Shown: piece by piece, positions 1 to 23,708 of the stretch
Position numbering within the stretch: position 1 is the stretch's first letter
How the letters are laid out: every line of letters begins with the position of its first letter
Virus record (IMG/VR): IMGVR_UViG_2526164597_000011
Source: a virus
Lineage: Duplodnaviria; Heunggongvirae; Uroviricota; Caudoviricetes
DNA: 29,114 bases
Reading direction: 5' to 3' (one strand)
Notes under the pieces: model-generated
Told to the model about the DNA's origin: nothing
Database searches by the model: none
Seen by the model: only the letters and a program-made list of their open reading frames with translations
Translations under genes and position numbers: made by a program

Positions 1-324
1 TCAGACATTGAGTTTTACCGGCACTTCTTCTGCACTGGTTCCGGCATCTGCCCATACAACCCCGACCAGCGGATCAGAGCCGCTGTTAGTCAGCTGAACT
101 TTTCCGGACTTCAGATAAACCTTCTTACCCGTTTTCATGTCATCCGTTTTCAGCTTAGGCAGCATAAACACACCTTCGGTTATGCCGTCGCCTGTTTCTC
201 CCTGTGGAATATCGGTCAGCGCCACCGCAAAAACATCACCCACCTGCACCAGATCTCCGCTGCTGATGGCTGCACTGGCAACAATCGCCACCGTTTTTCC
301 TTCTTCTACAAAATTCTTTGCCAT
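1..324 (-). CDS. Small phage head-region protein (possible decoration/DUF2190-like structural protein)
   Basis: Complete ORF with stop at 1-3, immediately downstream of the protease-capsid gene on the same strand. ATG at 324 is preceded by GGAGACAG RBS; the track ORF extends to a TTG at 369. Gly/Val/Thr-rich 107-aa product. Function inferred from position only. Confidence 0.4.
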   Translation of the reverse strand: MAKNFVEEGKTVAIVASAAISSGDLVQVGDVFAVALTDIPQGETGDGITEGVFMLPKLKTDDMKTGKKVYLKSGKVQLTNSGSDPLVGVVWADAGTSAEEVPVKLNV

Positions 325-365
325 AACTGTCTCCGCACAGCCCCGTTCAGGGGCTGATTTCAGGT

Positions 366-388
366 ACAAAAAAAGCCCTTACGGGCCA
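366..388 (-). terminator. Putative rho-independent terminator after the capsid gene
   Basis: Minus-strand hairpin GCCCGTAAGGGC followed by a T7 run (plus strand aaaaaaagcccttacgggc, about 368-386), just 3' of the capsid stop at 411. Confidence 0.35.
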
Positions 389-410
389 TCAGAGTTGTTG
401 TCTGCGACGT

Positions 411-2369
411 TTACGCCGTACATTTCACCAGACCGCGGTGATCAACTGGCGCGACACCGGCGTCAATACGCACTTTCGTTGTCACGCCATCCACACTGAA
501 GCCCTCCATCTGATCAATATATGGCGTATCCACACCGTTGAGATAAGCCACTTCAATCGTATCGGAGCCTTTTGACGCAGCCAGGTAGAAGGTGGTCTGG
601 CTGTTATCATCAAGACGAGGCTCTGCAATAACGGTCGCAAAATCTTTCACCGGGTTAATAATACCGGCGTTAATGTCAGCCCCCTTGACACTTGAGGAGC
701 GAATGACCTGGTTAGCAACAGACTCCATCGCCGTCGGTACCAGTACGAACGCAGGACGAATATTCAGATGACGCTCACCCTCTTTCTGAACGCGCATCAA
801 CTGGCGGGCTTTATCCAGCGATGCCACGTCCATTGCCGCGCTCTCCAGTACGTTTGCATGTTTCGCTTTATCGAACAGACTTACATTATCTGTGGAGATT
901 TTCGGGTTAGACGTCAGAATGGCATAAACCAGATCGGCAATAGTGGATTTCGCCGCACGGCCCAGCTTCATCGGGACATCGGTCAGCATATTCAGATCAT
1001 CATTGATAATGGCCTGACGGGTGATACTGAACAGCTCGCCATAGGTCGCCAGTGCAATAGTGGCCTGTTTATCTCCGGTGGTGACGTATTTATATTCCGC
1101 CCCTTCACGCACCTGACGCAGAGCACTGAAGCCCCCCATACCCACACGATGGGCAATTTTAAAATCAGACAACTGACCTTTCCGCGTCCACTGTTCATAG
1201 GTTTCAGGGGCATCTTCCCAGCCCTGCAGAATGGCTTTGTTCGCAACATCCAGCAGAATATTACCGAAGTCAGACGTACTGTGTGTGAACGCCGCACCGA
1301 CCATCTGCATCGGGTTATAACTGGAAACACCAATACCACGTTCAGTCAGTGACATACGGGCATATTCACGCAGGGTCATCCCGTTGTAGACATTATCACG
1401 TTCGGTTTTTTCAAATCCGGCACGCGCCATCAGCGCCTGGCGGATCCCGTCCCCCACAAAATTACCGTTACCGGCATAAATATGAGCCGGGGTATTTTTA
1501 TTGGATGGCGTGGACTCGCGCCCCATCTCGTTCAACAGCTTTTCGCGGGCCTGCTCCAGCGAACATTCAGGATCGGCAAGACACTGAGCCTGCAGCGTCT
1601 GATAACGCCCGCCAAACATGGCAAACAGATCATTAATACCGTTTACACGCGCTTTTTGCTCTGCCAGTACCTGCGCACGGATGCTGTTTTCATCCACCAC
1701 GGGTGCTGCTGCCTGCACTGGCGTCCGGGAGGCTGCAGGTCCATCATCCTGTACGCGTGGAGCACTGTTGCGTGGCGGAGTAATCATATTTCGAATGGAT
1801 TCCGGCATCTTTTTAAATTCCTCTGTACGTTTTGACTGAATACATGCCATTGCCTTAACGGCTGGTGTCACCTGATCAGCAAATCCATGTGCCAGACATT
1901 CGGCACCGGACATCCAGGTCTCATCCGCCAGCATGGCAGCAATTTCATCGGTGGTTTTCCCGGTTTTCTGTGCATAAGCGGGTAACAGAACCGCCTCAAC
2001 TTTATCGAGCAGGTCGGCATAGGTGCGCATGTCCTCCGCATCACCGCCCGTAAAGCCAAATGGTTTATGAATCATCATGAAGGAGTTTTCCGGCATAATG
2101 ACCGGGTTTCCCACCATCGCAATGACCGACGCCATTGACGCCGCCACACCGTCGACATAAACGGTAATGGACGCACCATGTGTTTTCAGTGCATTAAAAA
2201 TGGCGATGCCTTCAAAGACATCGCCACCCGGTGAATTGATATGGAGATTAATGTGGGTGATATCGCCCAGTGCATTCAGATCACTGATAAACTGCTTCGC
2301 TGTAACACCCCAGAAACCAATCTCGTCATAAATATAAATATCCGCGTCACTCTGGTGACCAGCCTGCAT
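411..2369 (-). CDS. Prohead protease (ClpP/S14-like) fused to major capsid protein (HK97-fold, Mu gpT-like)
   Basis: The N-terminal half has ClpP-like motifs (DADIYIYDEIG, INSPGGDVFEG, SMASVIAMVG). The C-terminal ~300 aa resemble a Mu-gpT/HK97-type major head subunit. The track ORF runs to a TTG at 2630 but overlaps the portal; the ATG at 2369 (MQAGHQSDADIYIY) is the likely start. Confidence 0.8.
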   Translation of the reverse strand: MQAGHQSDADIYIYDEIGFWGVTAKQFISDLNALGDITHINLHINSPGGDVFEGIAIFNALKTHGASITVYVDGVAASMASVIAMVGNPVIMPENSFMMIHKPFGFTGGDAEDMRTYADLLDKVEAVLLPAYAQKTGKTTDEIAAMLADETWMSGAECLAHGFADQVTPAVKAMACIQSKRTEEFKKMPESIRNMITPPRNSAPRVQDDGPAASRTPVQAAAPVVDENSIRAQVLAEQKARVNGINDLFAMFGGRYQTLQAQCLADPECSLEQAREKLLNEMGRESTPSNKNTPAHIYAGNGNFVGDGIRQALMARAGFEKTERDNVYNGMTLREYARMSLTERGIGVSSYNPMQMVGAAFTHSTSDFGNILLDVANKAILQGWEDAPETYEQWTRKGQLSDFKIAHRVGMGGFSALRQVREGAEYKYVTTGDKQATIALATYGELFSITRQAIINDDLNMLTDVPMKLGRAAKSTIADLVYAILTSNPKISTDNVSLFDKAKHANVLESAAMDVASLDKARQLMRVQKEGERHLNIRPAFVLVPTAMESVANQVIRSSSVKGADINAGIINPVKDFATVIAEPRLDDNSQTTFYLAASKGSDTIEVAYLNGVDTPYIDQMEGFSVDGVTTKVRIDAGVAPVDHRGLVKCTA

Positions 2370-2382
2370 CCTGAACCAGGAA

Positions 2383-3645
2383 TTATTCTTCGGACTGGTC
2401 GTCGGTGTACTGCGGCTCCTGTCGTTTCGTTGCGGCACTGCTGCCTCCTTTATCACTGGCCGGATCGGTATCAAATACCAGGTCCAGCTTGCGGTTTTCA
2501 TCAATTTCGGCCTTGCGCCGACGTTTGACATCATCTGGATTACGACCACCTGCACGTACCCAGTCTGATTCTGTCGCCGCTCCACCACGAATCTGAATTT
2601 TCCAGGCCTCAGCCTCCTTAACAGGGTCAATCCACGGCATCACCGGTCCGGAATACACCGCGGTATACAGTGAAGATCGGTCCAGATCGCGGGGTAGCCT
2701 GATAACACCGGATACCACAGCCTGTTTCAGCCAGGCACGATACATCGGACGGGTGACGGCACCAATAAACCAGTCCTGCAGGATCAGGTAGCCATCAGTG
2801 GATTCAACCAGCTCCTGACGCTGGGCGCTGTAAGTGCCGTTATAGTTGCGCGCTGTACTGGAAAAACTCAGACGACTGCCCGCCGCCACGGCACGCAACT
2901 GACCATTACGAAAAGTTTCAAGGTTAGGATTGGGGCGATCCGACTTCACCATTCCGATTTCTTCGCCGGGTTTCAGATCGTCGTAAATAATGCCTGGCTG
3001 AATGGTAAGCTCGCGTTCCTTATCCTTGCTGCCATTACCATCCGGTTCATAGCTCTGCCCGTCGCCTTTGCGGATGTACATCCCCAGAGCAGCGGCGATC
3101 CTTGCTGCAGTCAGCTCAGAATCTTCATACTCTTTCAGGGCACTGAGGCGGATCAGCACACCGGACAACAAAGACGTCCCGCGCATCTGGTGCAGACGGC
3201 GAACAAATTTAAGATGCAGCATTCGCTCTGCATCCACTTCTTTGGTTTCCATCTGCCGTCCGGATACGGGACGGCTTTTATACACCAGATATTTTTCGGG
3301 ACGCCCCCAGTCATCAACAAACACGCCCTGATTCAGCCTGTTGCTCTCATCACTGGTCATGGGAATAAAGTCCGGCTCGAGCGCCTCCAGCCAGAAATGA
3401 ACACCGGCAGAAGGCGTCAGGCTGTTTATGCGCCCGGAAACCATCTGGGCAAACACCTCACCATCGCGCAGCCAGGTACGCAGCATCAGACGCTCCAGCA
3501 TCGGACGGGTAAACTGCCCGGTGACTTCCGGGCTGACAGACCATTCACTCCATCGGGTGCGAATCTCCGCAGCCAGGTCACGGGCAATGGCCCCATTGCG
3601 TAATACCGGATGTGGCTCGACAATAATCCCGTTTTTCCCCACCAC
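2383..3645 (-). CDS. Phage portal protein (main C-terminal reading frame)
   Basis: 420-aa ORF between gpW and the protease-capsid gene, the canonical portal position in the lambda order A-W-B-C. Its only start is a GTG at 3645, and the frame stays open upstream to a stop at 3712-3714. Confidence 0.7.
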   Translation of the reverse strand: MVGKNGIIVEPHPVLRNGAIARDLAAEIRTRWSEWSVSPEVTGQFTRPMLERLMLRTWLRDGEVFAQMVSGRINSLTPSAGVHFWLEALEPDFIPMTSDESNRLNQGVFVDDWGRPEKYLVYKSRPVSGRQMETKEVDAERMLHLKFVRRLHQMRGTSLLSGVLIRLSALKEYEDSELTAARIAAALGMYIRKGDGQSYEPDGNGSKDKERELTIQPGIIYDDLKPGEEIGMVKSDRPNPNLETFRNGQLRAVAAGSRLSFSSTARNYNGTYSAQRQELVESTDGYLILQDWFIGAVTRPMYRAWLKQAVVSGVIRLPRDLDRSSLYTAVYSGPVMPWIDPVKEAEAWKIQIRGGAATESDWVRAGGRNPDDVKRRRKAEIDENRKLDLVFDTDPASDKGGSSAATKRQEPQYTDDQSEE

Positions 3646-7249: not shown

Positions 7250-7456
7250 TCAGTCAACCACCAGGGAATAATCCTTCGTATTCTTATCGTGCTTTACTAA
7301 CGCGGCCTCAATTGCCCTGAATGCTTCCAGAGATACTTGATGTTCTATACATGCAATTACAACATCCGGGTAACCCATCGAAATGGTGCTATTAAGCATA
7401 GTTTTTACACGAACCTGCTCCTGGGAGGGGGCATCAGTGTATTGATCTTTATGCAT
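7250..7456 (-). CDS. Hypothetical small prophage protein
   Basis: 68-aa ORF with an ATG start, isolated in an AT-rich accessory region between the cos region and gnsB. No recognisable motif. Confidence 0.35.
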
Positions 7457-7751
7457 TTTGTCGCTCCATTCGTTTGCTCTTCACTTGCGGCTAAAAATAT
7501 AACGTCAAATCACTCAGCATGAAAGAGTGAAAGTTTCAGCGCGTTTCCCTTACATAATCTGTCGTTTGTATTCTCTTCAGGCATACCGGAAAGACTAGGT
7601 ATTGTCACACAACCAATACCATCGACAATCGAGATTTATATCTATTCAGTAATGTTTAAATATAACAAAACCCCGTAAAAACGAGGTTTATGGGTAATTT
7701 GTATTGTTGAATAGCATCTGATGAGAAATTGATGCTAATACTATAAACATG

Positions 7752-7925
7752 CTAGATTAAATCAATCTTGATATCATAGCTTTCAAGACCAGTCATTTTT
7801 TCCCGTGCAGTAAACTGGATACTGGTAACTTCTTTCCCGGTCTTTTTCTTAAGCTCAATGATTTTTTTTGTTATATATTCAGAAATATCTGCTTCTGTTT
7901 TTGTTTTTAACTCTTCAATGTTCAT
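7752..7925 (-). CDS. gnsB: GnsA/GnsB family protein
   Basis: MNIEELKTKTEADISEYITKKIIELKKKTGKEVTSIQFTAREKMTGLESYDIKIDLI matches the Gns family as remembered. Two tandem ATGs at 7928/7925; the track ORF's upstream extension to 8018 is probably non-coding. Confidence 0.65.
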   Translation of the reverse strand: MNIEELKTKTEADISEYITKKIIELKKKTGKEVTSIQFTAREKMTGLESYDIKIDLI

Positions 7926-8097
7926 CATTTCCTCTTTTAGTCTGTTATGACTGTCCTGGTACACAGTAGTGTCAATTATATGGAGCAAACGTATAAAAGA
8001 TAAGATGAAACATCGCAATAATCAACATACGACGGTCTAAATTTCACACAAACAGATAAAGATGATTATCATTTATTATCAATGCATTAGAATCAAA

Positions 8098-8328
8098 TCA
8101 ATTCAAGAGTCTCATTGCTGCTTCCAGAATTTCTTCTGAAGTTACATGTCGATCCGCTGCTACATAAATGACTTTATGATCTCCGGTCAGAGATGGAAAC
8201 CCTGCAGCCATTACAGTGAGGTGTGTTGTTTCGCCATTTGGATATTCACGCATGATGGTGTTAACTCCGGTCATCACTGGCACTACCATTGCTGGTTCAG
8301 AGTTAAAAAAAACTATTATTTTTTTCAT
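8098..8328 (-). CDS. ynfN: YnfN-like small prophage protein
   Basis: MKKIIVFFNSEPAMVVPVMTGVNTIMREYPNGETTHLTV… with an ATG at 8328. Lies between gnsB and cspI, as in Qin-type prophages. Confidence 0.45.
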   Translation of the reverse strand: MKKIIVFFNSEPAMVVPVMTGVNTIMREYPNGETTHLTVMAAGFPSLTGDHKVIYVAADRHVTSEEILEAAMRLLN

Positions 8329-8372
8329 AATGTTACCGTAATATGTGAGTATCCATCGACTAGACACTAAGC

Positions 8373-8392
8373 AAAAAAGCTCCCGAAGGAGC
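8373..8392 (-). terminator. Putative rho-independent terminator downstream of the cold-shock gene
   Basis: Minus-strand hairpin GCTCC-TTCG-GGAGC followed by a T6 run (plus strand aaaaaagctcccgaaggagc). Confidence 0.35.
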
Positions 8393-8599
8393 CTTCATTT
8401 TCACTTTCTTAAATCTAACGACAGATGGCTAACATTTAAGTATTGTGAAATATTATCAAATGTAATCATCATTGATTTACAAAAGATACATTTTGCCCCG
8501 AAAGGATTTCTGTCAGAAACATCAAAAGATGATGTTCTATACTGAGAACCATGGCAACACGGGCATCTAAAGTGAATATGGTTTGTAATATTTTCTACC

Positions 8600-8812
8600 T
8601 CAAAGTGCCACTACATGAACAGCTGCAGGGCCTTTAGGTCCGTTCTCAATACCAAATTCGACTTCCTGATTCTCAGTTAACGTTTTGAAATCGTTGCTCT
8701 GAATAGCTGAGAAATGCACAAACACATCTTTGCTACCATCTTTCGGCGTGATGAAACCAAAACCTTTTTCAGGGTTAAACCATTTCACTAAACCAGTCAT
8801 TTTGTTAGACAT
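8600..8812 (-). CDS. cspI: Cold-shock protein (CspA family, CspI/CspB-like)
   Basis: [38 protein letters not shown]… carries the RNP1/RNP2 cold-shock motifs (KGFGFI, VFVHF). About 190 bp of AT-rich leader lies upstream, typical of csp genes. Confidence 0.85.
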
Positions 8813-9021
8813 CATTATTACCTTTTGAAGAAGTTAGCCCTTGGGCAGAATGGTCCGAAAAAAAATATCAGAGAGAAAAACCAACAAGGAAATCTCAAGA
8901 GGTACAAATAATAAAATTATAACAATGACTGCTTCAGATAATTTTGTAACAAACCAGAACACCATTAACGCATGATTAACCAACCATAGCAAGGATTACT
9001 TTTGTAGGTAATGACTCCAAC

Positions 9022-9525
9022 TTACTGATAGTGTTTTATGTTCAGATAATGCCCGATGACCTTGTCATGCAGCTCCACCGATTTTGAGAACGACAGTGAC
9101 TTCCGTCCCAGCCTTGCCAGATGTTGTCTCAGATTCAGATTATGTCGCTCAATGCGCTGAGTGTAACGCTTGCTGATAACGTGCAGCTTTCCCTTCAGGC
9201 GTGATTCATACAGCGGCCAGCCATCCGTCATCCATACCACGACCTCAAAGGCCGACAGCAGGCTCAGAAGACGCTCCAGTGTGGCCAGAGTGCGTTCACC
9301 GAAGACGTGCGCCACAACAGTCCTCCGTATCCTGTCATACGCGTAAAACAGCCAGCGCTGACGTGATTTAGCACCGACGTAGCCCCATTGTTCGTCCATT
9401 TCAGCGCAGACAATCACATCACTGCCCGGTTGTATGCGCGAGGTTACCGACTGCGGCCTGAGTTTTTTAAGTGACGTAAAACCGTGTTGAGGCCAACGCC
9501 CATAATGCGTGCACTGGCGCGACAT
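9022..9525 (-). CDS. insB: IS1 InsB (catalytic part of InsAB' transposase, produced by -1 frameshift)
   Basis: 167-aa ORF that overlaps insA in the -1 frame. Sequence is typical of IS1 InsB (…[42 protein letters not shown]…). Confidence 0.95.
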
Positions 9526-12734: not shown

Positions 12735-12851
12735 TTTTCCTCACATATGTCATATAGTAAAGGATTATATATACCGTTGTTTTGGACGCTCAAACAGCGA
12801 ATCAGATCAAATAAAACGCACATTTGTTAACATTTACACAAAGTCTGCGTG

Positions 12852-12872
12852 GGATATTCTGAAAGAATATCC
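12852..12872. promoter_or_regulatory. Perfect 21-bp palindrome (candidate operator) upstream of the lipoprotein cargo gene
   Basis: GGATATTCT-GAA-AGAATATCC, 9-bp arms with a 3-nt spacer, ~120 bp upstream of the lipoprotein start at 12734 in an AT-rich promoter-like region. Confidence 0.3.
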
Positions 12873-13267
12873 ATAATGTGGAGAGAATCTATTGAAGTGC
12901 ATGGTGCCGGGTGCCTCCCGGTGAATTCAGTACCAGCACCTGAATCCGCGATTATCCCATATACCTACTCGCTGATTGCCCCTCCGCACAGGGGGATTCA
13001 CCATGCCAGTTTCTTTTAACAAACTCCCCGCAAACCAGAGAACAGTCAACCGCCTGAATTGTGAAGTATTTAAAAATTTCTCCCGCTAACTGATACCCGG
13101 CTAACAGTCTGGCGTTTTCTTTTTCAGCAACGGGAAAGCAACAACCACCACACCCGCCACCAGCACACCGTCAGCCAGCACTGACATTATCCGGCTGCTG
13201 CAATGCCATTCACAAAAACAGTAAGCAATCACTTTTTACCGTAACAGGTGATAATCCAGATATGTAT

Positions 13268-13731: not shown

Positions 13732-13808
13732 TGGCGCGCTGTACTGGATTCGAACCAGTGACCGATTGCTTAGAAGGCAATTGCTCTGTCCGGCTGAGCT
13801 AACAACGC
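13732..13808 (-). tRNA. tRNA-Arg (anticodon UCU), phage-borne argN/argO-like
   Basis: Minus-strand sequence GCGTTGTTAGCTCAGCCGGACAGAGCAATTGCCTTCTAAGCAATCGGTCACTGGTTCGAATCCAGTACAGCGCGCCA. 7-bp acceptor stem (one G-U pair), anticodon loop CT-TCT-AA, T-loop GGTTCGAATCC, encoded CCA end. Confidence 0.85.
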
Positions 13809-13908: not shown

Positions 13909-13984
13909 TGGTGGCCCTTGCTGGATTTGAACCAGCGACCTGGCGATTATGAGTCGCTCGCTCTCACCACTGAGCTAAAGGGCC
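13909..13984 (-). tRNA. tRNA-Ile2 (anticodon CAU, lysidine-type; ileX/ileZ-like)
   Basis: Minus-strand sequence GGCCCTTTAGCTCAGTGGTGAGAGCGAGCGACTCATAATCGCCAGGTCGCTGGTTCAAATCCAGCAAGGGCCACCA, near-identical to E. coli tRNA-Ile2 as remembered. Anticodon loop CT-CAT-AA, encoded CCA end. Confidence 0.85.
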
Positions 13985-15332: not shown

Positions 15333-16421
15333 TTACCCAAGCACGCCAGTTGCAAAGGCGTGATCAAGAAAACGAAAAATTAAATCAACCTGAGAACCAT
15401 GCTTTTCTTCGAACGCCAGAGGATCCGCATGAAGCTCGTTGTGATGCTCCCGACACAGCGGTAGCGTGAAAATATCGTGAGATTTTGTCCCCATTCCGCC
15501 CTGACCATGACCAATCAGGTGATGGGGATCGTCGGCTGGCTTACCACAACACGCACACGGCTGTGTCTTCACCCAGCGTTTGTATTTCTCGTTAACCCAG
15601 CAGCGACGTTTAGGTCGTTTCATGAAAGATTCCGGAGACTCAGGATCAACGGCAATGCTGACCACCGTCTTTTCCTGTGGTGGGTTCTGTTGCTGGTGGG
15701 CGTGAGGCAGCGGCGCAAGATTTTTTGTGCGCTGTTTCAGTATGCTGGTGGCGGTCTGCTCTCCCGGTACGATGTCGCTTTCGCGGTACACCGAGCAGAT
15801 TTTTTCCGCTGGTAATCCCAGCGAACGACGCGATACAGCCTCAGGTAGTGCATCCACCACCTGATTGCAGACCGCCCACCAGGATAATTCAGCCAAAGAT
15901 AATTCCCGCTCCTGCGTACCGCTTATTGCGTGACGGATGACGTCAATCACCCATGCTGTCAGATTTTGTTGAGCAAGCAGCTCCAGTGATTCCGATGTCT
16001 GGTCACGCAGTTGGTTGTCGCAGTGCCAACACAACACCATTGCGCCGGTACCATAACGGTGAATGACTGTTTCAGTGTGATGGTAATCTCCATTAGGCCA
16101 CTGGCAGGATGTAACATGACGTAATAGCCAGTCAGACAATGCGCCAACGCCGCCAGCAGCACGAATCACCCGTTCGTTACTAAAAAACGGCAGCAATGTT
16201 TTGTCTTCCGCCAGCGGCTGGCCAACGGCAGGAACGACTCCGGATGGCAGATTACGCATGCTTTTTGGTTCCGGTTCCACCAGCACTCGAGGATTATGAA
16301 ATATCTGTATGGATTCACGGCCCGGCTTAAGGACCACCAGCCCAAGCTCAGGCACCAGAACAGGTCTAAGTAATACCCGCACGTTACCTCCAGATCCGTT
16401 GCTGGAAAGTGCGGGACGCAC
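15333..16421 (-). CDS. DUF968-family prophage protein (YdfU-like) with C-terminal HNH-like Cys/His motif
   Basis: C-terminus …RRCWVNEKYKRWVKTQPCACCGKPADDPHHLIGHGQGGMGTKSHDIFTLPLCREHHNELH… Start uncertain: track GTG/TTG at 16421, possible internal Met at 16259. Confidence 0.55.
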   Translation of the reverse strand: MRPALSSNGSGGNVRVLLRPVLVPELGLVVLKPGRESIQIFHNPRVLVEPEPKSMRNLPSGVVPAVGQPLAEDKTLLPFFSNERVIRAAGGVGALSDWLLRHVTSCQWPNGDYHHTETVIHRYGTGAMVLCWHCDNQLRDQTSESLELLAQQNLTAWVIDVIRHAISGTQERELSLAELSWWAVCNQVVDALPEAVSRRSLGLPAEKICSVYRESDIVPGEQTATSILKQRTKNLAPLPHAHQQQNPPQEKTVVSIAVDPESPESFMKRPKRRCWVNEKYKRWVKTQPCACCGKPADDPHHLIGHGQGGMGTKSHDIFTLPLCREHHNELHADPLAFEEKHGSQVDLIFRFLDHAFATGVLG

Positions 16422-16662
16422 GTGGTGGGCGTTCGGAGTAAGGCAATCTGACTGAGATTATCCAGTGACGGTAGTCGAGACTAAGGGCTTTCTTAACCTC
16501 GTATCCGCGCCTGCGGTAACACTGAATTATCCATTCAGCCTGCTCTTCAGTGCATGGAGGGTGTTGGAACCATTCAGACTTGAATGCGTGAGAATACCGC
16601 TCGTGCGTGCAGGCAAGAACGGGCGAATTATCAGAATTGTAATATTTTACGTTGCGTGCCAT
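16384..16662 (-). CDS. Hypothetical small protein (nin-region-like)
   Basis: 92-aa ORF starting with ATG, overlapping the putative 5' end of the DUF968 gene by 38 nt. No motif recognised. Confidence 0.35.
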   Translation of the reverse strand: MARNVKYYNSDNSPVLACTHERYSHAFKSEWFQHPPCTEEQAEWIIQCYRRRGYEVKKALSLDYRHWIISVRLPYSERPPRASRTFQQRIWR

Positions 16663-16728
16663 CGGTTTTCTCCGGTGGCACGGTGTTACTCAGCGGGAGT
16701 TCAGCCCCGCGCAAGATTGTAGATGAGT

Positions 16729-16980
16729 TTATTCTTCTGCAAAAGCTGAAAAGCCTGCTTTTATTCCGATCTCTTTCAGTGCCTGTAATGAAGTGACAAA
16801 CTCACCTTCGCGCAAGATAAATCCGTCTGTCACTCGACCATCCACAAAATTAATTAACGCAGCCCCATTCTTTCGCAAACACATAATGCGGTAATGACTA
16901 ACAAGATTTCCATTTTCAACGCACACCGCATAGAGGCCATCTTCACAAAAAATTTTACGCAGTTCTTCGATGTTCATCAT
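16729..16980 (-). CDS. rem: Rem-like small prophage protein
   Basis: 83 aa, MMNIEELRKIFCEDGLYAVCVENGNLVSHYRIMCLRKNGAALINF…; matches Qin rem as remembered, and sits next to hokD. Confidence 0.5.
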   Translation of the reverse strand: MMNIEELRKIFCEDGLYAVCVENGNLVSHYRIMCLRKNGAALINFVDGRVTDGFILREGEFVTSLQALKEIGIKAGFSAFAEE

Positions 16981-17107
16981 CAGAATCCTTCCGGATAATT
17001 AGCTCTCCCCTTTAAGGGACCATCCCTCTTATCCCTGCGCGCTACTTAAGTATTTTTGATTCTATTCCGGCACCGTCCAGAACTTCAAACGCGTTGAAAA
17101 TAAAAAC

Positions 17108-17130
17108 AAAAACCCGCCGAAGCGGGTTAA
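17108..17130 (-). terminator. Putative rho-independent terminator at the hokD 3' end
   Basis: Hairpin AACCCGC-TTCG-GCGGGTT followed on the minus strand by TTTTGTTTTT (plus strand aaaaacaaaaacccgccgaagcgggtt). Confidence 0.35.
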
Positions 17131-17196
17131 GTGCGGGTGCGTTGAGGATGCCTGCCACATCAGAGGTGGCGAGGGATTTCTCCCTCGCCGGGTCTC

Positions 17197-17352
17197 TTAC
17201 TCCTCAGGTTCGTAAGCTGTGAAGACAGCGACCTCCGTCTGCCCGGTTCGGATTCGTACCTCGCAGAGGTCTTTCCTCGTTACCAGTGCCGTCACTATGA
17301 CGGTTAAACAGATGACGATCAGGGCGATTAACATCGCCTTTTGCTGCTTCAT
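17197..17352 (-). CDS. hokD: Hok/Gef-family membrane toxin HokD (RelF)
   Basis: MKQQKAMLIALIVICLTVIVTALVTRKDLCEVRIRTGQTEVAVFTAYEPEE, 51 aa, matches HokD as remembered. ATG at 17350-17352; the track ORF is extended upstream in frame. Confidence 0.85.
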   Translation of the reverse strand: MKQQKAMLIALIVICLTVIVTALVTRKDLCEVRIRTGQTEVAVFTAYEPEE

Positions 17353-18095
17353 AGCCTGCTTCTCCTTGCCTTTCGGCACGTAAGAGGCTAACCTACATGT
17401 GTCTAGCATGAAATTGGCCTCAGATTAATGTTAAGCGTCTTGCAGGACGCGTAATGTTAACTGGGGCTTTTCTCTATCTGCCGTTGGTGTTCATGCCCGA
17501 GGCAGATAGCCTCAAGCACCCGCAGCCATTCTACTTAACTACCGTTACCTCGCCAATGTGAAATCAGTCAGAAAGGCGATCCATAAGAACAATAGCAAGA
17601 CAATAAATCGCCATTACAGCCGTAATAGCCAGCGCACATTTGAGAACCAGCACCACAACCTCCTGTATTGGACGTACACCAGTCCTGATGAATATGAGGC
17701 TGTCTCGTCAGTGATTCAATACAACTATTGGGTATAGTTTCTCTGATTTTTTCTGTGGAAATGGGGCTCAACCACTAGTCATTTAATACGCAAAGTCCGA
17801 CACAAGCTAACCTTCTAGTCCGCTTTGAGCGAGGAGTGGACCTTGTTATGCTCACGGCCAGAAAGCGCTATGTAAGTTTGGGGTGAGTTTGGTTATGCTG
17901 TATTCCTGCCATAGTCGTTACTCCAGTTAACAGTGTGGTCAGATGCCCTATAGTATCACGAGCACTATAGGGCGTTGTCTTATGATCCAACTGCATGATG
18001 AGCTTAGGCTATTGGATTAAAGAACTAGTTAGAACTGAATTAAAGACAAAGGGAATCACTCCTAAAGGCCAATTATTCATTGAAAAGGAATTGGT

Positions 18096-19445
18096 ATGAA
18101 CGCAGGATTACACTTCAGTGAGATCAGCAAAGAACAATTTGATATTTATTTTTACGGTCGCTCACCTTACCTTAAGACATTTTCTGAGGAGATACGCTGG
18201 TTTAAATATGAGGGGAATGGGATAACATTGTTATCCACAATAATCATATGCAATATTGATAAAGATTTTAACGCAATAGTCTTAGGTCGGGATTTAGATA
18301 AAAAATTCAGAGCAATAAACGTCTTGGCTTCATTTGATTCAATGGATGTCTTGCTTAATAATTTGAACGATGACATACCAAAGATGCTGGCGCAGCACCA
18401 AAATGGTACATTCATGCAAGGCGATGAATCATCCAAACCTTTTTCATTATTCTTGAGTAAAGTCCCAGAGAAAAAAAGGAATGTTTATATAAAAATGCTC
18501 CTCGAAGACCCTCTTCATTTCCCTGCATATATTGTTCTTGAGGAACTTGCATACTGGTTCAAAGATCCTGATGGAATATTTATAAGGGATTTTCAAAGTG
18601 ATGCATTTAATTCAAGGTTATTTGAATTATATTTGAACGCTGTATTTTATGAACTCGACTTTGAAATGAATAGAGAATACAATCAACCAGATTTTCTGCT
18701 ATCTAAATTTGGAGTGGAAATTGCTGTAGAGGCTGTAAGCATTGCTGAAGCAGAAGCCCCTCTTGAAAGAAAAGTCATTAACGATGAACAGATGGATGAA
18801 TTAAGAAAACATGTTCTAAATGTCATGCCTTTTAAGTTTGCAAGAAGTTTATTAAAAAAAGTCCGGCATTGCCCTGAGCCAGAGAAAGTTCATTACTGGG
18901 AACTCAACCATACAAAGAACAAACCATTTGTCATAGCAATGCAGGATTATTCAAAAAGAATGTCCATGGCCTTCTCAAGCGAAGCCTTGCATAGCTATTT
19001 GTACGGGATTGATATTGAGTCAGGCATTTCTATTGAAAGACATACAGATGAAAATAGAAGTATCAAGTCGAACTTTTTTGGCTCAGAACAAAATAATTAT
19101 GTTTCTGCCGTTTTACTCACTACTCAAGCAACCATACCTAAGTTTAACCGGATGGGAATTCTTGCAGGTGTAGAGGCGAGTGGATTCAAAGTGTACGTCA
19201 GTGGTGTTAAAACTGATCAGGATGCAGCCCCACATCCATTTTCAGCCGATGTAAGTGACCCTAACTATCAAGAACCATGGTGTACAGCCATGTACATGTA
19301 CCATAATCCAAACGCTATACACCCTGTTGACTATCAATTATTCCCAAATGTAGTTCATGTATTTAAAAAGGACGAACACTTTGAAGAGTACATTCCCAGA
19401 AACTATATTCTCCAATCGACTACTATGATATGTAAAACGGAATAA
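18096..19445 (+). CDS. AT-rich orphan protein of unknown function, 449 aa (candidate defence/cargo gene)
   Basis: Long ATG-initiated ORF with AAGGAA RBS 6 nt upstream. Markedly lower GC than the flanking phage genes. Only plus-strand gene inside a minus-strand block. No family recognised; weak PD-(D/E)xK-like stretch (NQPDFLLSKFGVEIAVEAVS). Confidence 0.7.
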   Translation: MNAGLHFSEISKEQFDIYFYGRSPYLKTFSEEIRWFKYEGNGITLLSTIIICNIDKDFNAIVLGRDLDKKFRAINVLASFDSMDVLLNNLNDDIPKMLAQHQNGTFMQGDESSKPFSLFLSKVPEKKRNVYIKMLLEDPLHFPAYIVLEELAYWFKDPDGIFIRDFQSDAFNSRLFELYLNAVFYELDFEMNREYNQPDFLLSKFGVEIAVEAVSIAEAEAPLERKVINDEQMDELRKHVLNVMPFKFARSLLKKVRHCPEPEKVHYWELNHTKNKPFVIAMQDYSKRMSMAFSSEALHSYLYGIDIESGISIERHTDENRSIKSNFFGSEQNNYVSAVLLTTQATIPKFNRMGILAGVEASGFKVYVSGVKTDQDAAPHPFSADVSDPNYQEPWCTAMYMYHNPNAIHPVDYQLFPNVVHVFKKDEHFEEYIPRNYILQSTTMICKTE

Positions 19446-19879
19446 ATTGTGGTTTACTAAAAGCTAATAAATGATTAATGCGTTTTTCCGTATTAATCGT
19501 TTATTATCAAAGCAATTCACCACGAATCCACACCTGTACTTCCGATAGCCGATAAGCTACCGCTGAAGATCCAATTTTGATGCGCTGGTTTTTCGGGGGG
19601 ATTACTCTGGTTCTTCATCGAAGAGCGGAGTACCGGAGTTACTTATCGTCAGAGTGCTACGATTTCGCTGAATACAGAACTTCAACTTGATAAGTGCAGT
19701 TTCTTTAAGCCCCCCTGCAAACCAACCATCAACTTTTGGAGGGCTCTTGCATACCAACGTCCGCTCTTGGCACAAAGCGGACAACCACGCCAGATCTACC
19801 CTGTGCCATGAAAAATGAGAATGTCAATTCACTCCTGAACTAATGCTTTTTAATCTAGTAACGTCTAAAATACCTAACA

Positions 19880-20281
19880 TTATCCCTGATAAAATGCCAG
19901 TATGCGCTGCATAACTTCACTCATCCGGCACTCGCGACAGATTATGTTTAGGCGACTGTCGTAGCGACGTATTTCTCCATCAGGTAACGACCAGATAAGG
20001 TCCGGATCAACCACAGCTGTTTTCTTCACCTTTGCCCTCGATAGTTTTTTGCGGGCGTTTTGCCAGTCCTTACGCGCCTGTTCAGACGGGAATAACCCGT
20101 AGCCGGAGTTGTATACATCGCCACTGGCTACCAGCTCTCTGGCAAGAACGCTCATCAGATATCTAGTCGCACCTGTTTTAGCTTCCAGTTGCCGTAACGT
20201 CTCACGACCGCTCTGGCGCACGAGTTCCACCACCTGCCCTTTAATTTTTTCCCGCTCTTCTTGTGTAAAAACTTTTGCCAC
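19880..20281 (-). CDS. Hypothetical early-region protein downstream of the replication gene
   Basis: 133-aa ATG-initiated ORF, basic, with a CRECR motif. Position corresponds to the helicase-loader/nin-side of the replication module. No family recognised. Confidence 0.45.
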   Translation of the reverse strand: MAKVFTQEEREKIKGQVVELVRQSGRETLRQLEAKTGATRYLMSVLARELVASGDVYNSGYGLFPSEQARKDWQNARKKLSRAKVKKTAVVDPDLIWSLPDGEIRRYDSRLNIICRECRMSEVMQRILAFYQG

Positions 20282-20321
20282 AAGTCCCCCTTAAAATTAC
20301 CTCATGACCTGAAATCAAAAC

Positions 20322-21341
20322 TTATCCTCTGAAACCAGGCGGAATTTCTGTATCCGGTTCAGAAATATGATTCATACAACGCTGTACAGGTGAACGTCCC
20401 AGGCGGATGACCAGTTCGTCCCATTTTTCGCGGAGTTTTGACGGGCTCATGATGTTTTTTACCCAGAATTGATCTCGCTGTACCCGACCAAACATTTCGC
20501 AAATTTGTCTGTGGCTTCTGCCATCCAGCATCCGCATTGTGCGCACGTCATTGGCCCAGGCTGTCCAGTTAGGCTCTTTTGGTCGCATGATCTCTCCATC
20601 GTCGCTGGCAGCCTGTTCGTAAAGGTTCACGATCCGCCCCCAAATCCACTGCGCACACGCCAAATCCTCCCTGCTACCCCACTGGCGTTTTTTCGCACTA
20701 AACACAACCGCGTCGGGGTTCCGGGTTAAAAAATCCTGTTCAGCGGTCTGCGGGTCCGGTTGCGAAGCTTCCGGACGAAAAGTGTTTTTATTCTCTGTAG
20801 TAATCTCTGTTGTATTCTCTGTAAGATCATCAGGCCATTTTGACCCGATGACATTGGGTCGTTTTGAACCAATGGAGCGTTTCATTTTGACCTCTTCCAT
20901 CGTGTCATTTTGACCTGATGGAGCGGCGCATTTTAAACCGATGGATTCGCTCAATTTGCCACCATCTAAAAGCTCGCTCCCGTAGTTGATCGTGTAGAAA
21001 TTGGTCATATCGCGCTTTGATTTATTGAGCTTTTCACAACGCAAAAGCCCCAGCGTTTTCAGACTTGCAAACGCGCGCTTTAACGTTGACTCTGACCAGA
21101 ATGGGAACTGTTCCAGCCATTGTTCCGTTGTGTTGTAAATCCAGCGAACACCATCACATTCCATGCCGGAATTGGTATCTCTCAACCAGTAATGCAACTG
21201 CTGCAACACAATGGCTTCATTTAAGCCAATCTTCATCGCAAGCTGTGTGTTTATAACCAGTGGGCGTTCAGCAAAAAGAAGGCTCATAATTCCATCCAGC
21301 TTTTTGTTGGTATTGCTGTCGATACGCAAGTTTGAAAGCAA
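20322..21341 (-). CDS. Replication initiation / replisome-organizer protein (lambda O-like role) with internal origin iterons
   Basis: N-terminal winged-helix-like region (…WIYNTTEQWLEQFPFWSESTLKRAFASLKTLGLL…). Central region contains the iteron array, encoding repeated SIGSKRP/NVIGSKWP peptides. Start uncertain (21341 or internal Met at about 21287). Confidence 0.6.
   Translation of the reverse strand: MLSNLRIDSNTNKKLDGIMSLLFAERPLVINTQLAMKIGLNEAIVLQQLHYWLRDTNSGMECDGVRWIYNTTEQWLEQFPFWSESTLKRAFASLKTLGLLRCEKLNKSKRDMTNFYTINYGSELLDGGKLSESIGLKCAAPSGQNDTMEEVKMKRSIGSKRPNVIGSKWPDDLTENTTEITTENKNTFRPEASQPDPQTAEQDFLTRNPDAVVFSAKKRQWGSREDLACAQWIWGRIVNLYEQAASDDGEIMRPKEPNWTAWANDVRTMRMLDGRSHRQICEMFGRVQRDQFWVKNIMSPSKLREKWDELVIRLGRSPVQRCMNHISEPDTEIPPGFRG
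20835..20950. repeat. Replication-origin iterons: five direct repeats at 23-bp spacing inside the replication gene
   Basis: cattttgacccgatg (20837), gttttgaaccaatgg (20860), cattttgacctcttc (20883), cattttgacctgatgg (20906), cattttaaaccgatgg (20929). Spacing of successive repeats is exactly 23 bp. Confidence 0.6.
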
Positions 21342-21789
21342 TTGCTTTTTCTATAAGTTCGTCAGTTTCACGATCCACTACGGCAGGATCAGCAAAAAGC
21401 AGTCCGGACTCCACCACATCGCCATATTCTTTGTTTAACCCGGCGATCATGTACGTGATGCTTTTTCCGTCACTAATTTCACGATACAACCTGAAATCAT
21501 TAATCCGGATAGCCTCCATAATTGCAGGCACTAGCGCCGTGAACTTTTCACGCTTATCCCTAGTGTCGATAGCCTTCCAGCGTTCGAATATCTTCACTCG
21601 ATTAACGCCAAGCGCTCGCTGATCAACCGCGCCACCTTCATCTGTGACACGCTGAACATCGATGTTCGGGCGCTCTTTCAAAGCCCAGAATGCTTCAGTG
21701 ATTAATATCGTCGCCTGCTCCTGTGTCATTCCTGGTCGACATATCCAGGCATCCAGAGCCTCACGAGCCTGTTCAGGAGTGATTTTCAT
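21268..21789 (-). CDS. Hypothetical early protein at the cII-equivalent position
   Basis: 173-aa ATG-initiated ORF immediately downstream of the Cro-like gene, overlapping the replication-gene ORF's 5' extension. No motif recognised. Confidence 0.45.
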   Translation of the reverse strand: MKITPEQAREALDAWICRPGMTQEQATILITEAFWALKERPNIDVQRVTDEGGAVDQRALGVNRVKIFERWKAIDTRDKREKFTALVPAIMEAIRINDFRLYREISDGKSITYMIAGLNKEYGDVVESGLLFADPAVVDRETDELIEKAIAFKLAYRQQYQQKAGWNYEPSFC

Positions 21790-23651: not shown

Positions 23652-23708
23652 TTTCTGGTGACGTTTGGCGGTATCAGTTTTACTCCGTGACTGCTCTGCC
23701 GCCCTTTT
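23652..23708 (+). ncRNA. dicF: DicF small regulatory RNA (ftsZ-targeting sRNA)
   Basis: tttctggtgacgtttggcggtatcagttttactccgtgactgctctgccgccctttttaa matches the DicF sequence as remembered, including the 3' GGCGG…CCGCC hairpin plus U-run. Located between ydfB/C and dicB. Confidence 0.75.

Follow-up and report, generated by a model that had tools for sequence, protein, structure and literature searches.

The 449-codon open reading frame considered here, which lies on the plus strand of a 29,114-nt stretch of Caudoviricetes DNA (IMG/VR record IMGVR_UViG_2526164597_000011, hereafter the window), is in our judgement, with a probability of about 0.8, a PD-T7-1 gene, a moron of a Qin-like lambdoid prophage whose product defends against phages on its own, is expressed from the gene's own promoter-like site and cuts phage nucleic acid by means of a PD-(D/E)xK nuclease. 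A PD-T7-1 gene beside hokD is already known as a family and is not new. A first-pass annotation, made from the sequence without database searches, had called the frame an orphan of no recognizable family, a view that the profile searches overturn. The protein matches the PADLOC PD-T7-1 model PDLC04073 over its full length (E=4e-157, 521 bits; residues 8-447 against profile positions 2-448 of 452) and PHROG 8571 at E=2.5e-120, while the PD-T7-5 profile (PADLOC PDLC04110) covers residues 117-427 (E=1.5e-40). Its relatives comprise more than 1,000 cluster representatives, and shorter members of ~345 aa are frequent among them. Scanned against Pfam and NCBIfam, the protein matched no model, and its RefSeq entry, WP_000991111.1, is labelled "hypothetical" in hundreds of genomes. 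Defence-specific profiles name this entry at once, and the prophage record should list a validated anti-phage gene in the place of relBE.

The same annotation had proposed a nuclease-type anti-phage gene, and this proposal is borne out by the family match and by published assays in which homologues were protective. PD-T7-1 is a validated single-gene system that, according to the accessible text of the study, protects against T7 and more strongly against T-even phages; the representative from ECOR46 (RCQ85672.1), cloned with its native promoter, conferred protection against T7 and T-even phages (Vassallo et al., 2022, Nat Microbiol; PMC9519451). The accessible text also gives phage adsorption as unchanged by E. 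coli PD-T7-1 homologues, and weak HHpred matches of the ECOR46 gene at residues 171-219 to Hjc (the best, at 80% probability), PDDEXK_5 and RmuC. The NILS69 allele protects against a Teseptimavirus and yields small T7 plaques (PMC12409345). No nuclease activity, target, trigger or mechanism of PD-T7-1 is published in the literature searchable here.

Start codon, ribosome-binding site and opposed orientation of the gene were all as first described; the neighbouring hokD, rem, DUF968, DUF977 and replication-like genes are without exception on the minus strand. Calculation likewise upheld the lower GC content (0.364 for the gene against 0.499 and 0.477 for the left and right flanks; GC3 0.336 against 0.50-0.52 in neighbouring genes). 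The low-GC block of ~2.4 kb (17410-19880) that had been drawn around the gene did not stand, as the low GC is that of the frame itself and the foreign DNA is a 1,966-bp unit (Table 1). Nor are the flanks non-coding, as had been thought: the left one holds the hok leader/sok region and a promoter-like site, the right one a decayed AlpA-like gene. Further Rfam rows in the flanks (isrK, SSRC34_2, ceN48, rsmX) fell below the gathering score and were taken as chance. Relative to copies in other phages the gene has a dN/dS of 0.07-0.15 and is under purifying selection.

Table 1. Features in and around the PD-T7-1 unit (window positions; domain limits in residues).
Feature	Position	Strand	Remarks
hok mRNA leader / sok antisense region of hokD	17347..17521	-	Rfam RF01794, 115 bits against a gathering score of 59; outside the unit
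Promoter-like site, left flank	17528-17556		consensus match
Portable cargo unit	17817..19782	.	1,966 bp; carries PD-T7-1; similarity ends abruptly on both sides
Left border, arm of 34-nt inverted repeat	17818..17851	.	core GTCCGCTTTGAGCGAGGAG; 82% complementary to 19749-19782 (repeat search)
Sigma-70 promoter-like site	17927..17954	+	TTAACA-16-TATAGT; 10/12 consensus; ~140 nt upstream of ATG, within the unit
Perfect 10-bp palindrome	17945..17973	.	GCCCTATAGT-N9-ACTATAGGGC; overlaps predicted -10; fold z-score -4.7
Shine-Dalgarno AAGGA	18085..18089	+	6 nt 5' of the PD-T7-1 ATG; read from the sequence
PD-T7-1 gene	18096..19445	+	449 aa; ATG start
PD-T7-1 domain plan	residues ~1-110; ~125-310; ~315-449		beta-rich N-terminal; PD-(D/E)xK-like core; conserved beta-rich C-terminal
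AT-rich hairpin, 18-bp	19465..19506	.	20 nt past the PD-T7-1 stop; -10.3 kcal/mol, z-score -6.4
Decayed AlpA-family (helix-turn-helix) gene	~19507..19720	-	convergent with PD-T7-1; upstream limit approximate
Right border, other arm of inverted repeat	19749..19782	.	palindromic core GTCCGCTCTTGGCACAAAGCGGAC; hairpin z-score -3.6

The sigma-70 site within the unit is a putative promoter by its match to the consensus, and the palindrome that overlaps it is, from the folding prediction, a possible operator; in the Morganella copy of the unit both arms of this palindrome are intact and three changes fall in the spacer. The hairpin past the stop codon is predicted by folding and likely serves as a terminator between the convergent PD-T7-1 and AlpA-like genes. 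The sequence CACTATAGGG at 17963-17972 equals positions -7 to +3 of the T7 promoter; it is unique in the window, and 0 of 100 shuffles contained such a match. The specificity of T7 RNA polymerase is determined by promoter positions -8 to -11. Because these mismatch here, we rejected the idea of a T7 promoter and do not claim induction driven by a phage polymerase.

A stretch of the protein, QPDFLLSKFGVEIAVEAVS, had been noted as weakly PD-(D/E)xK-like. The fold comparison backs this reading, and the stretch bears two residues, D199 and E212, that are invariant in the family. Across 40 homologues with identities down to 34%, the invariant positions are E150, D157, D159, Q167, E177, P198, D199, E212, A213 and K255. 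Two positions after E212 every homologue has V, A or L, not lysine; E177 is placed on the first helix and K255 on the following helix. On the model, the core has a restriction-endonuclease-like (PD-(D/E)xK) fold, and its structural matches include CdiA-CT toxins, tRNA-splicing endonucleases, TnsA and homing endonucleases. CdiA-CT toxins comprise tRNases and DNases. Other routes to a nuclease family were negative: with E<=5, the 40 aligned homologues hit no nuclease family in Pfam and nothing beyond scattered noise, PDB sequences searched with the family profile gave no match at E<=10, and Foldseek found no PDB structure at E<=0.001, its top Rad50 rows (TM ~0.12) being meaningless. Membership of RmuC was rejected, as neither the protein nor its homologues match it in Pfam and the published HHpred probability is 37%; the Shield paper likewise describes the RmuC similarity as of low probability and without a common fold.

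The mechanism that we infer is as follows. The protein would be produced in the lysogen from the promoter-like site, and its central domain would be a metal-dependent nuclease of PD-(D/E)xK type with an acidic triad of E177 (first helix), D199 (second strand) and E212 (third strand). A hydrophobic residue would stand where a lysine is canonical, with the invariant K255 on the next helix as the likely substitute for that lysine, and the domain would cut the infecting phage's nucleic acid. The N-terminal domain, in which R22, E32, W35, D57, R65 and D66 are conserved and which is missing in PD-T7-5, and the C-terminal domain probably serve recognition or control. For PD-T7-1 the analysis provides a confident model together with a layout of its domains and four residues for mutation (E177, D199, E212 and K255).

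Of interest for phage evolution is that the gene moves as part of a discrete unit with repeats at its ends, which differs little between lambdoid, P2-like and Morganella phages. The unit shares 99.0% identity with that of the Yersinia P2-like phage vB_YpM_46, where it lies between the tail genes FI and G, 96.2% with Morganella phage IME1369_01 and 99.6% with E. coli WCHEC035148. Of 5,426 complete E. coli genomes, 201 have the whole unit, once each and at >=95% nucleotide identity; no PLSDB plasmid has it. The AlpA-like remnant beside the gene translates as ...IKIGSSAVAYRLSEVQVWIRGELL, with in-frame stops upstream; a C-terminal AlpA-like remnant at the matching place in NZ_AP017610 is marked as a pseudogene by RefSeq, and beside the Serratia homologue the equivalent position is taken by an intact Phage_AlpA gene (54 aa). 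We found no conserved partner gene, since no neighbour recurs in the seven contexts compared (window, Serratia, two of Pseudomonas, Alloalcanivorax, Burkholderia and Paraburkholderia). A reverse transcriptase that overlaps one Pseudomonas copy from upstream was considered as a partner and rejected (1/7 contexts, not a feature of the family). Several contexts are defence islands beside Shedu SduA_C, PRTase-CE, PIN-TPR-GreABC or a type II restriction-modification pair.

Within the prophage, PD-T7-1 sits between hokD (17197-17352, its product 100% identical to that of K-12) and the DUF977 gene. The Qin-like arrangement without relBE that had been described was confirmed: the K-12 order in NC_000913.3 is hokD-relE-relB-ydfV, and tblastn searches of the window with K-12 RelB and RelE found nothing better than E=5. 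The hokD-rem-ydfU neighbourhood is common to both prophages at 94.6% DNA identity, whereas relB and relE are missing from that of the window; conversely, the window hokD retains a complete leader of hok/sok type, which is missing in K-12. K-12 Qin has one border-like site just past relB. The proposed location in a defence hotspot agrees with the variable content of the slot, which in other E. coli holds DUF4209, HAD+NUDIX, deaminase, AbiH or KwaB-like genes.

The core of the left border recurs at the edge of the hokD/DUF977 slot with other cargo and in an annotated inverted repeat of P2-EC46, and similarity of the flank to genomes with other cargo restarts at 19752-19759, inside the right border site; the border sites are part of both backbone and cargo. 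Window positions 19756-19782 match AJ512680.1 92-118 (27 nt, 93%) and 17817-17836 match 3171-3190 of the same record (20 nt, 95%). The backbone of the Yersinia phage matches both flanks of P2-EC46 up to the border sites, and the same border sites frame ~40 further types of cargo, in many cases defence genes. Nilsson, Karlsson and Haggard-Ljungquist reportedly described foreign DNA bounded by inverted repeats at the P2-like Z/fun locus (2004, Mol Biol Evol 21:1), and the basic idea of cargo exchange at such sites is said to have been raised for P2 in that year. In the P2-EC46 record (GenBank AJ512680.1) the features annotated as 'left/right inverted repeat' are matched at their inner ends by the border cores of our unit; here, in contrast, the slot is that of a lambdoid Qin-like prophage, from hokD to DUF977, and the two backbones have only the ~24-nt cores in common.

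We tentatively put forward, as a possible but doubtful account, that these ~24-nt palindromic borders (GTCCGCT-N10-AGCGGAC type) are docking sites of a cassette exchange among unrelated temperate phages, in which site-specific recombination by a putative recombinase would move whole defence genes. The backbones concerned are the P2 Z/fun locus, the Qin-like hokD/DUF977 slot, the umuDC/tail-fibre slot of the Morganella phage and further unclassified ones. The data are equally compatible with ordinary recombination between short stretches of homology at conserved boundaries. An unrelated 200-aa tyrosine recombinase beside the unit in E. coli WCHEC035148 was considered as the enzyme and rejected, being absent from the window and having no close relative in enterobacterial phages; it is probably mere neighbouring cargo. 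The border hairpins were also considered as intrinsic terminators and rejected in this role, because they are not followed by a T-run on either strand. Integron gene cassettes offer a comparison, as palindromic sites are present here too, but at both ends and in mirrored orientation, and no integron integrase lies near the unit. If true, the exchange would amount to an integron-like market for defence cargo, and true recombination sites at the borders would explain the trade of defence genes between unrelated phages and provide a sequence tag for new defence cargo.

Among the other readings of the gene, a serious contender, if still short of even odds, is that PD-T7-1 acts as an abortive-infection toxin that responds to a phage cue with indiscriminate degradation of host and phage DNA, or of tRNA/RNA, and kills the cell before phage release. 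Twelve of the 21 systems of the Vassallo screen behaved in this way in its accessible text; against this reading, the text also records direct immunity for 7 of the 11 systems that have a domain for DNA binding or cleavage. CdiA-CT toxins and tRNA-splicing endonucleases are among the closest structural matches, and the contexts examined hold no methylase or other partner for self-protection; the stable carriage in the 201 E. coli genomes with no antitoxin-like neighbour, however, argues the other way. It is unlikely that the nuclease-like domain is catalytically dead and that the protein instead binds a phage DNA structure or protein and blocks replication or packaging. Inactive nuclease domains usually lose their catalytic residues, yet E177, D199 and E212 never vary in the homologues, nor does K255, which is close by in the chain, and displaced lysines are known in the PD-(D/E)xK superfamily, for example in sites of the Cfr10I/NgoMIV type.

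That the frame encodes the mobility enzyme of its own unit, as a transposase-like or homing-type nuclease with defence as a side effect, we consider very improbable. With 34-nt inverted repeats exactly at its termini, a length of 2 kb and one nuclease-fold frame, the unit does resemble an insertion sequence, and TnsA and homing endonucleases appear in the fold matches. However, the other framed cargo types are unrelated and lack this gene, no transposase lies within the unit, and no direct repeats of a target-site duplication flank it at any of three independent junctions (window, Yersinia phage and P2-EC46). The single copy per E. coli genome and the distant homologues in ordinary defence islands without these repeats point the same way, as does the validated clone, which had ~45 nt past the stop and so lacked one repeat, if, as its cloned coordinates suggest, the gene is on the minus strand of its contig. 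Least probable of all is a moron that serves lysogenic conversion or another function outside defence. The name 'glycosaminoglycan attachment site protein' is used in the Morganella phage record and in some UniRef entries, and cargo of the P2 Z region was first labelled 'putative lysogenic conversion protein'; against this, the former name has no supporting domain, homologues show a measured anti-phage phenotype, and the neighbouring cargo is defence-related.

The reading of the gene as PD-T7-1 can finally be set against known nucleases and family members. Compared with PD-(D/E)xK nucleases of the Hjc, VRR-NUC and XisH types, PD-T7-1 lacks a lysine two residues past E212 and a sequence-profile match, and has large added N- and C-terminal domains without a solved relative. 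PD-T7-5-type proteins have the core and C-terminal regions in common with it and lack the N-terminal ~110 residues. The gene of ECOR46, compared by length, family profile and HHpred location, is equally long (1,350 nt) and has its weak nuclease-like signal at the same residues as the motif of the window protein. No difference from PD-T7-1 as described was found: both are single genes with a promoter or promoter-like site of their own, at home in prophages and defence islands.

The plus-strand ORF beside hokD encodes a member of PD-T7-1, a kind of defence gene that is already known and experimentally supported. The PADLOC model for PD-T7-1 matches the protein over its entire length (E=4e-157), that for PD-T7-5 matches residues 117-427 (E=1.5e-40) and PHROG 8571, whose function is unassigned in PHROG, gives E=2.5e-120, with no match in Pfam and NCBIfam scans. 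The first-pass annotation had described an orphan gene of no recognised family, a description that can no longer be maintained, and had proposed a nuclease-type anti-phage gene in a hotspot, which is supported. According to the available text of the original study, PD-T7-1 was one of 21 systems obtained by functional selection on the E. coli pangenome, was cloned from ECOR46 under its native promoter (protein RCQ85672.1, 1,350-nt gene) and leaves adsorption unaffected (PMC9519451). A second allele, that of strain NILS69, protects against a Teseptimavirus and reduces T7 plaque size (PMC12409345). We infer that the ORF protein is the same as the tested ECOR46 allele from the equal gene length, the coinciding HHpred coordinates and the DNA identity of at least 95% in all 201 E. 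coli copies. No published account of the mechanism of PD-T7-1 was found in the literature searched. The RefSeq entry (WP_000991111.1) reads "hypothetical protein", and the identical protein is on record in 565 contigs. Some records (UniRef names; comparison locus L003, 3029-4378) use "glycosaminoglycan attachment site protein", a name without support from any domain in the PD-T7-1 protein that looks like an annotation artefact which has since spread.

The ORF itself (449 aa, ATG start) and its good ribosome-binding site (AAGGA, 6 nt upstream of the ATG) were correctly recognised from sequence, as was its orientation, every neighbouring gene being on the minus strand. Its low GC content holds on calculation (0.364 vs 0.499 in the left and 0.477 in the right flank), and GC3 is 0.336 vs 0.50-0.52 in neighbouring genes. 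A second low-GC block of the window lies at ~7250-9250 (GC 0.34-0.40). The flanks, described as non-coding, are only partly so: they resolve into the hok leader/sok, promoter-like sites, a decayed AlpA-like gene and border sites. Positions 16400-21400 are 100% identical to E. coli 20Ec-P-124, where the matching DNA is part of a full-length Qin-like lambdoid prophage adjoining rspB.

Features of the window (positions in nt)
Feature	Position	Strand	Basis or remark
cspA-type thermoregulator	8554-8970		above Rfam gathering score
STnc100	12845-13035		above Rfam gathering score
tRNA	13735-13808		above Rfam gathering score
tRNA	13912-13984		above Rfam gathering score
hok leader/sok	17347-17521	-	Rfam sok, 115 bits
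Promoter-like site for hok	17528-17556	-	predicted
Left border site	17818-17851		inverted repeat arm
Promoter-like site TTAACA-16-TATAGT	17927-17954		predicted
Perfect 10-bp palindrome GCCCTATAGT-N9-ACTATAGGGC	17945-17973		overlaps predicted -10 of PD-T7-1 promoter-like site
PD-T7-1 ORF	18096-19445	+	
AT-rich hairpin, 18 bp	19465-19506		fold z -6.4; terminator role predicted
Decayed AlpA-family gene	~19507-19720	-	in-frame stops
Right border site	19749-19782		inverted repeat arm
DicF	23653-23704		above Rfam gathering score

The PD-T7-1 family comprises 1,079 representatives of 50%-identity clusters (E<=0.001) from Enterobacterales, Pseudomonas, Burkholderia and others, in two architectures: ~450 aa, as in the ORF, and ~345 aa starting near residue 118 (PD-T7-5 type). 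Invariant residues among 40 homologues (to 34% identity) include R22, E32, W35, D57, R65 and D66 in the N-terminal part, E150, D157, D159, Q167, E177, P198, D199, E212, A213, K255 and D284 in the centre, and H316, R352, E393, W395, H403, N404 and P405 in the C-terminal part. AlphaFold models the protein with confidence (pLDDT 89, pTM 0.90) as a beta-rich N-terminal domain (residues ~8-99), a core (helix 171-186, strands 190-192, 200-204 and 207-216, helix 230-257, strand 278-284) and a beta-rich C-terminal region. Helix one carries E177, the second strand opens with D199 and the third contains E212, which, as modelled, is the layout of the usual acidic triad. The position two after E212 is hydrophobic in the entire family, so the canonical lysine is absent; invariant K255 is a candidate substitute. 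At fold level there is support for membership of the PD-(D/E)xK superfamily, with a non-canonical motif; sequence profiles give none. The PD-(D/E)xK-like stretch noticed in the first-pass annotation coincides with residues 171-219, for which the domain evidence in the available text of the original study is limited to weak HHpred hits to Hjc, PDDEXK_5 and RmuC (PMC9519451). The ORF is under purifying selection, as seen from dN/dS values of 0.12 against the Yersinia phage copy, 0.07 against that of a Morganella phage and 0.15 against that of E. coli RM10740.

PD-T7-1 is carried on a portable unit. In comparisons with a P2-like Yersinia phage (99.0% identity), a Morganella phage (96.2%) and E. 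coli WCHEC035148 (99.6%), the shared sequence begins at 17817 and breaks off abruptly at 19780-19782, and its two ends form a 34-nt inverted repeat whose arms are 82% complementary. The unit is flanked by tail genes FI and G in the Yersinia phage and, in the Morganella phage, by umuDC on one side and a tail-fibre gene on the other. It was found in 201 of 5,426 complete E. coli genomes, always whole and in single copy, and in none of the PLSDB plasmids. Within it, the palindrome is probably an operator; in the Morganella copy its arms are identical and the spacer has three changes. Extended by one base, the right arm reads CACTATAGGG (17963-17972), which is identical to the T7 promoter from -7 to +3 and occurs once in the window; at the specificity positions (-8 to -11) there is no match. 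The decayed AlpA-family gene is carried within the unit in every phage copy. Beside a Serratia marcescens homologue of PD-T7-1 the AlpA gene is intact (54 aa) and lies downstream of a P4-type integrase, which suggests a P4-like island as the source of the unit.

No conserved partner gene was seen in seven genomic contexts of the PD-T7-1 family, that of the window included; several of these contexts are defence islands. In one of the seven (Pseudomonas fluorescens HK44; L009, 4748-7410), a homologue with 51% identity shares a 4-nt overlap with a reverse transcriptase of 418 aa encoded upstream (PADLOC RT; closest named group UG17, RT_UG17, E=3.6e-35), and the pair could be a two-gene RT-plus-nuclease variant. 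In E. coli RM10740 (L020, 4001-9054) an IS3 element, a restriction-methylase pair of type II and a gene for tail-fibre assembly lie beside the unit, an arrangement that looks like a small defence cluster within a P2-like remnant.

The K-12 arrangement described in the first-pass annotation agrees with the K-12 map, which reads hokD-relE-relB-ydfV, and the reported absence of relBE is confirmed by the lack of any RelE or RelB match across the entire window. HokD (17197-17352) is 100% identical to that of K-12, where similarity to the window stops at 17366 because relE abuts hokD. The window gene retains a complete hok/sok-type leader and promoter-like site (17347-17556, minus strand), separated from the foreign unit by ~260 bp of prophage backbone; unlike its K-12 counterpart, it may thus function autonomously as a hok/sok module. 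One border-like site, GTCCGCTTTGTGCCAGGAGCAGCC..., is present in K-12 MG1655 Qin (L010, 5982-6015) within ydfV just past relB, on the far side of relBE, and relBE itself may be cargo of the same slot.

The border sites are palindromic, of the GTCCGCT-N10-AGCGGAC type, and frame the slot regardless of cargo. In Qin-like prophages carrying DUF4209 or HAD+NUDIX cargo, flank similarity extends to 17832 or 17845, within the left site, and restarts inside the right site (19752-19759), so that the site cores are part of backbone and cargo alike. With a deaminase cargo only the right-hand boundary falls inside a border site, because left-flank similarity ends early, at 17765. Three tandem units, each with its own border sites, fill the slot of WCHEC035148 (L005, 1771-7181): one encoding a 326-aa hypothetical protein and a 200-aa tyrosine recombinase (PF00589), the PD-T7-1 unit, and one encoding a 314-aa hypothetical protein; another left-type site begins 18 nt past the right site of the PD-T7-1 unit. 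Exchange of units may be either site-specific or through ~24-nt homology; no target-site duplication was visible, nor was any recombinase found to be consistently adjacent.

Border sites are found in the backbones of Qin-like, P2-like and Morganella-type phages, and the right-site core has matches in P2 itself and numerous P2-like phages. A scan of IMG/VR with the left core gave at least 120 loci. Among the matches listed, 56 left sites had a right-type site 0.65-4.7 kb downstream, enclosing 40 distinct cargo clusters, defence genes in many cases (PD-T7-1 in 6/56), between Qin-like, P2-like, umuD/tail-fibre-like or unclassified flanks. The largest ORF matched a defence model in six of ten other cargo types examined among these matches: DarT, NucC-like, HNH effector, NsnA/PD-T4-2_A-like, Lamassu/Ppl-like ATPase and PDC-S31. 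The points of note are the mechanism of PD-T7-1 and a repeat-bounded slot common to several phage families, the latter reportedly described in part for P2 since 2004 by Nilsson et al. GenBank AJ512680.1 (P2-EC46 Z region), the record of these authors, who are cited for variable P2 loci in the available text of later work, has a "left" and a "right inverted repeat" annotated around two foreign ORFs. The inner ends of these repeats are the border-site cores of our unit.
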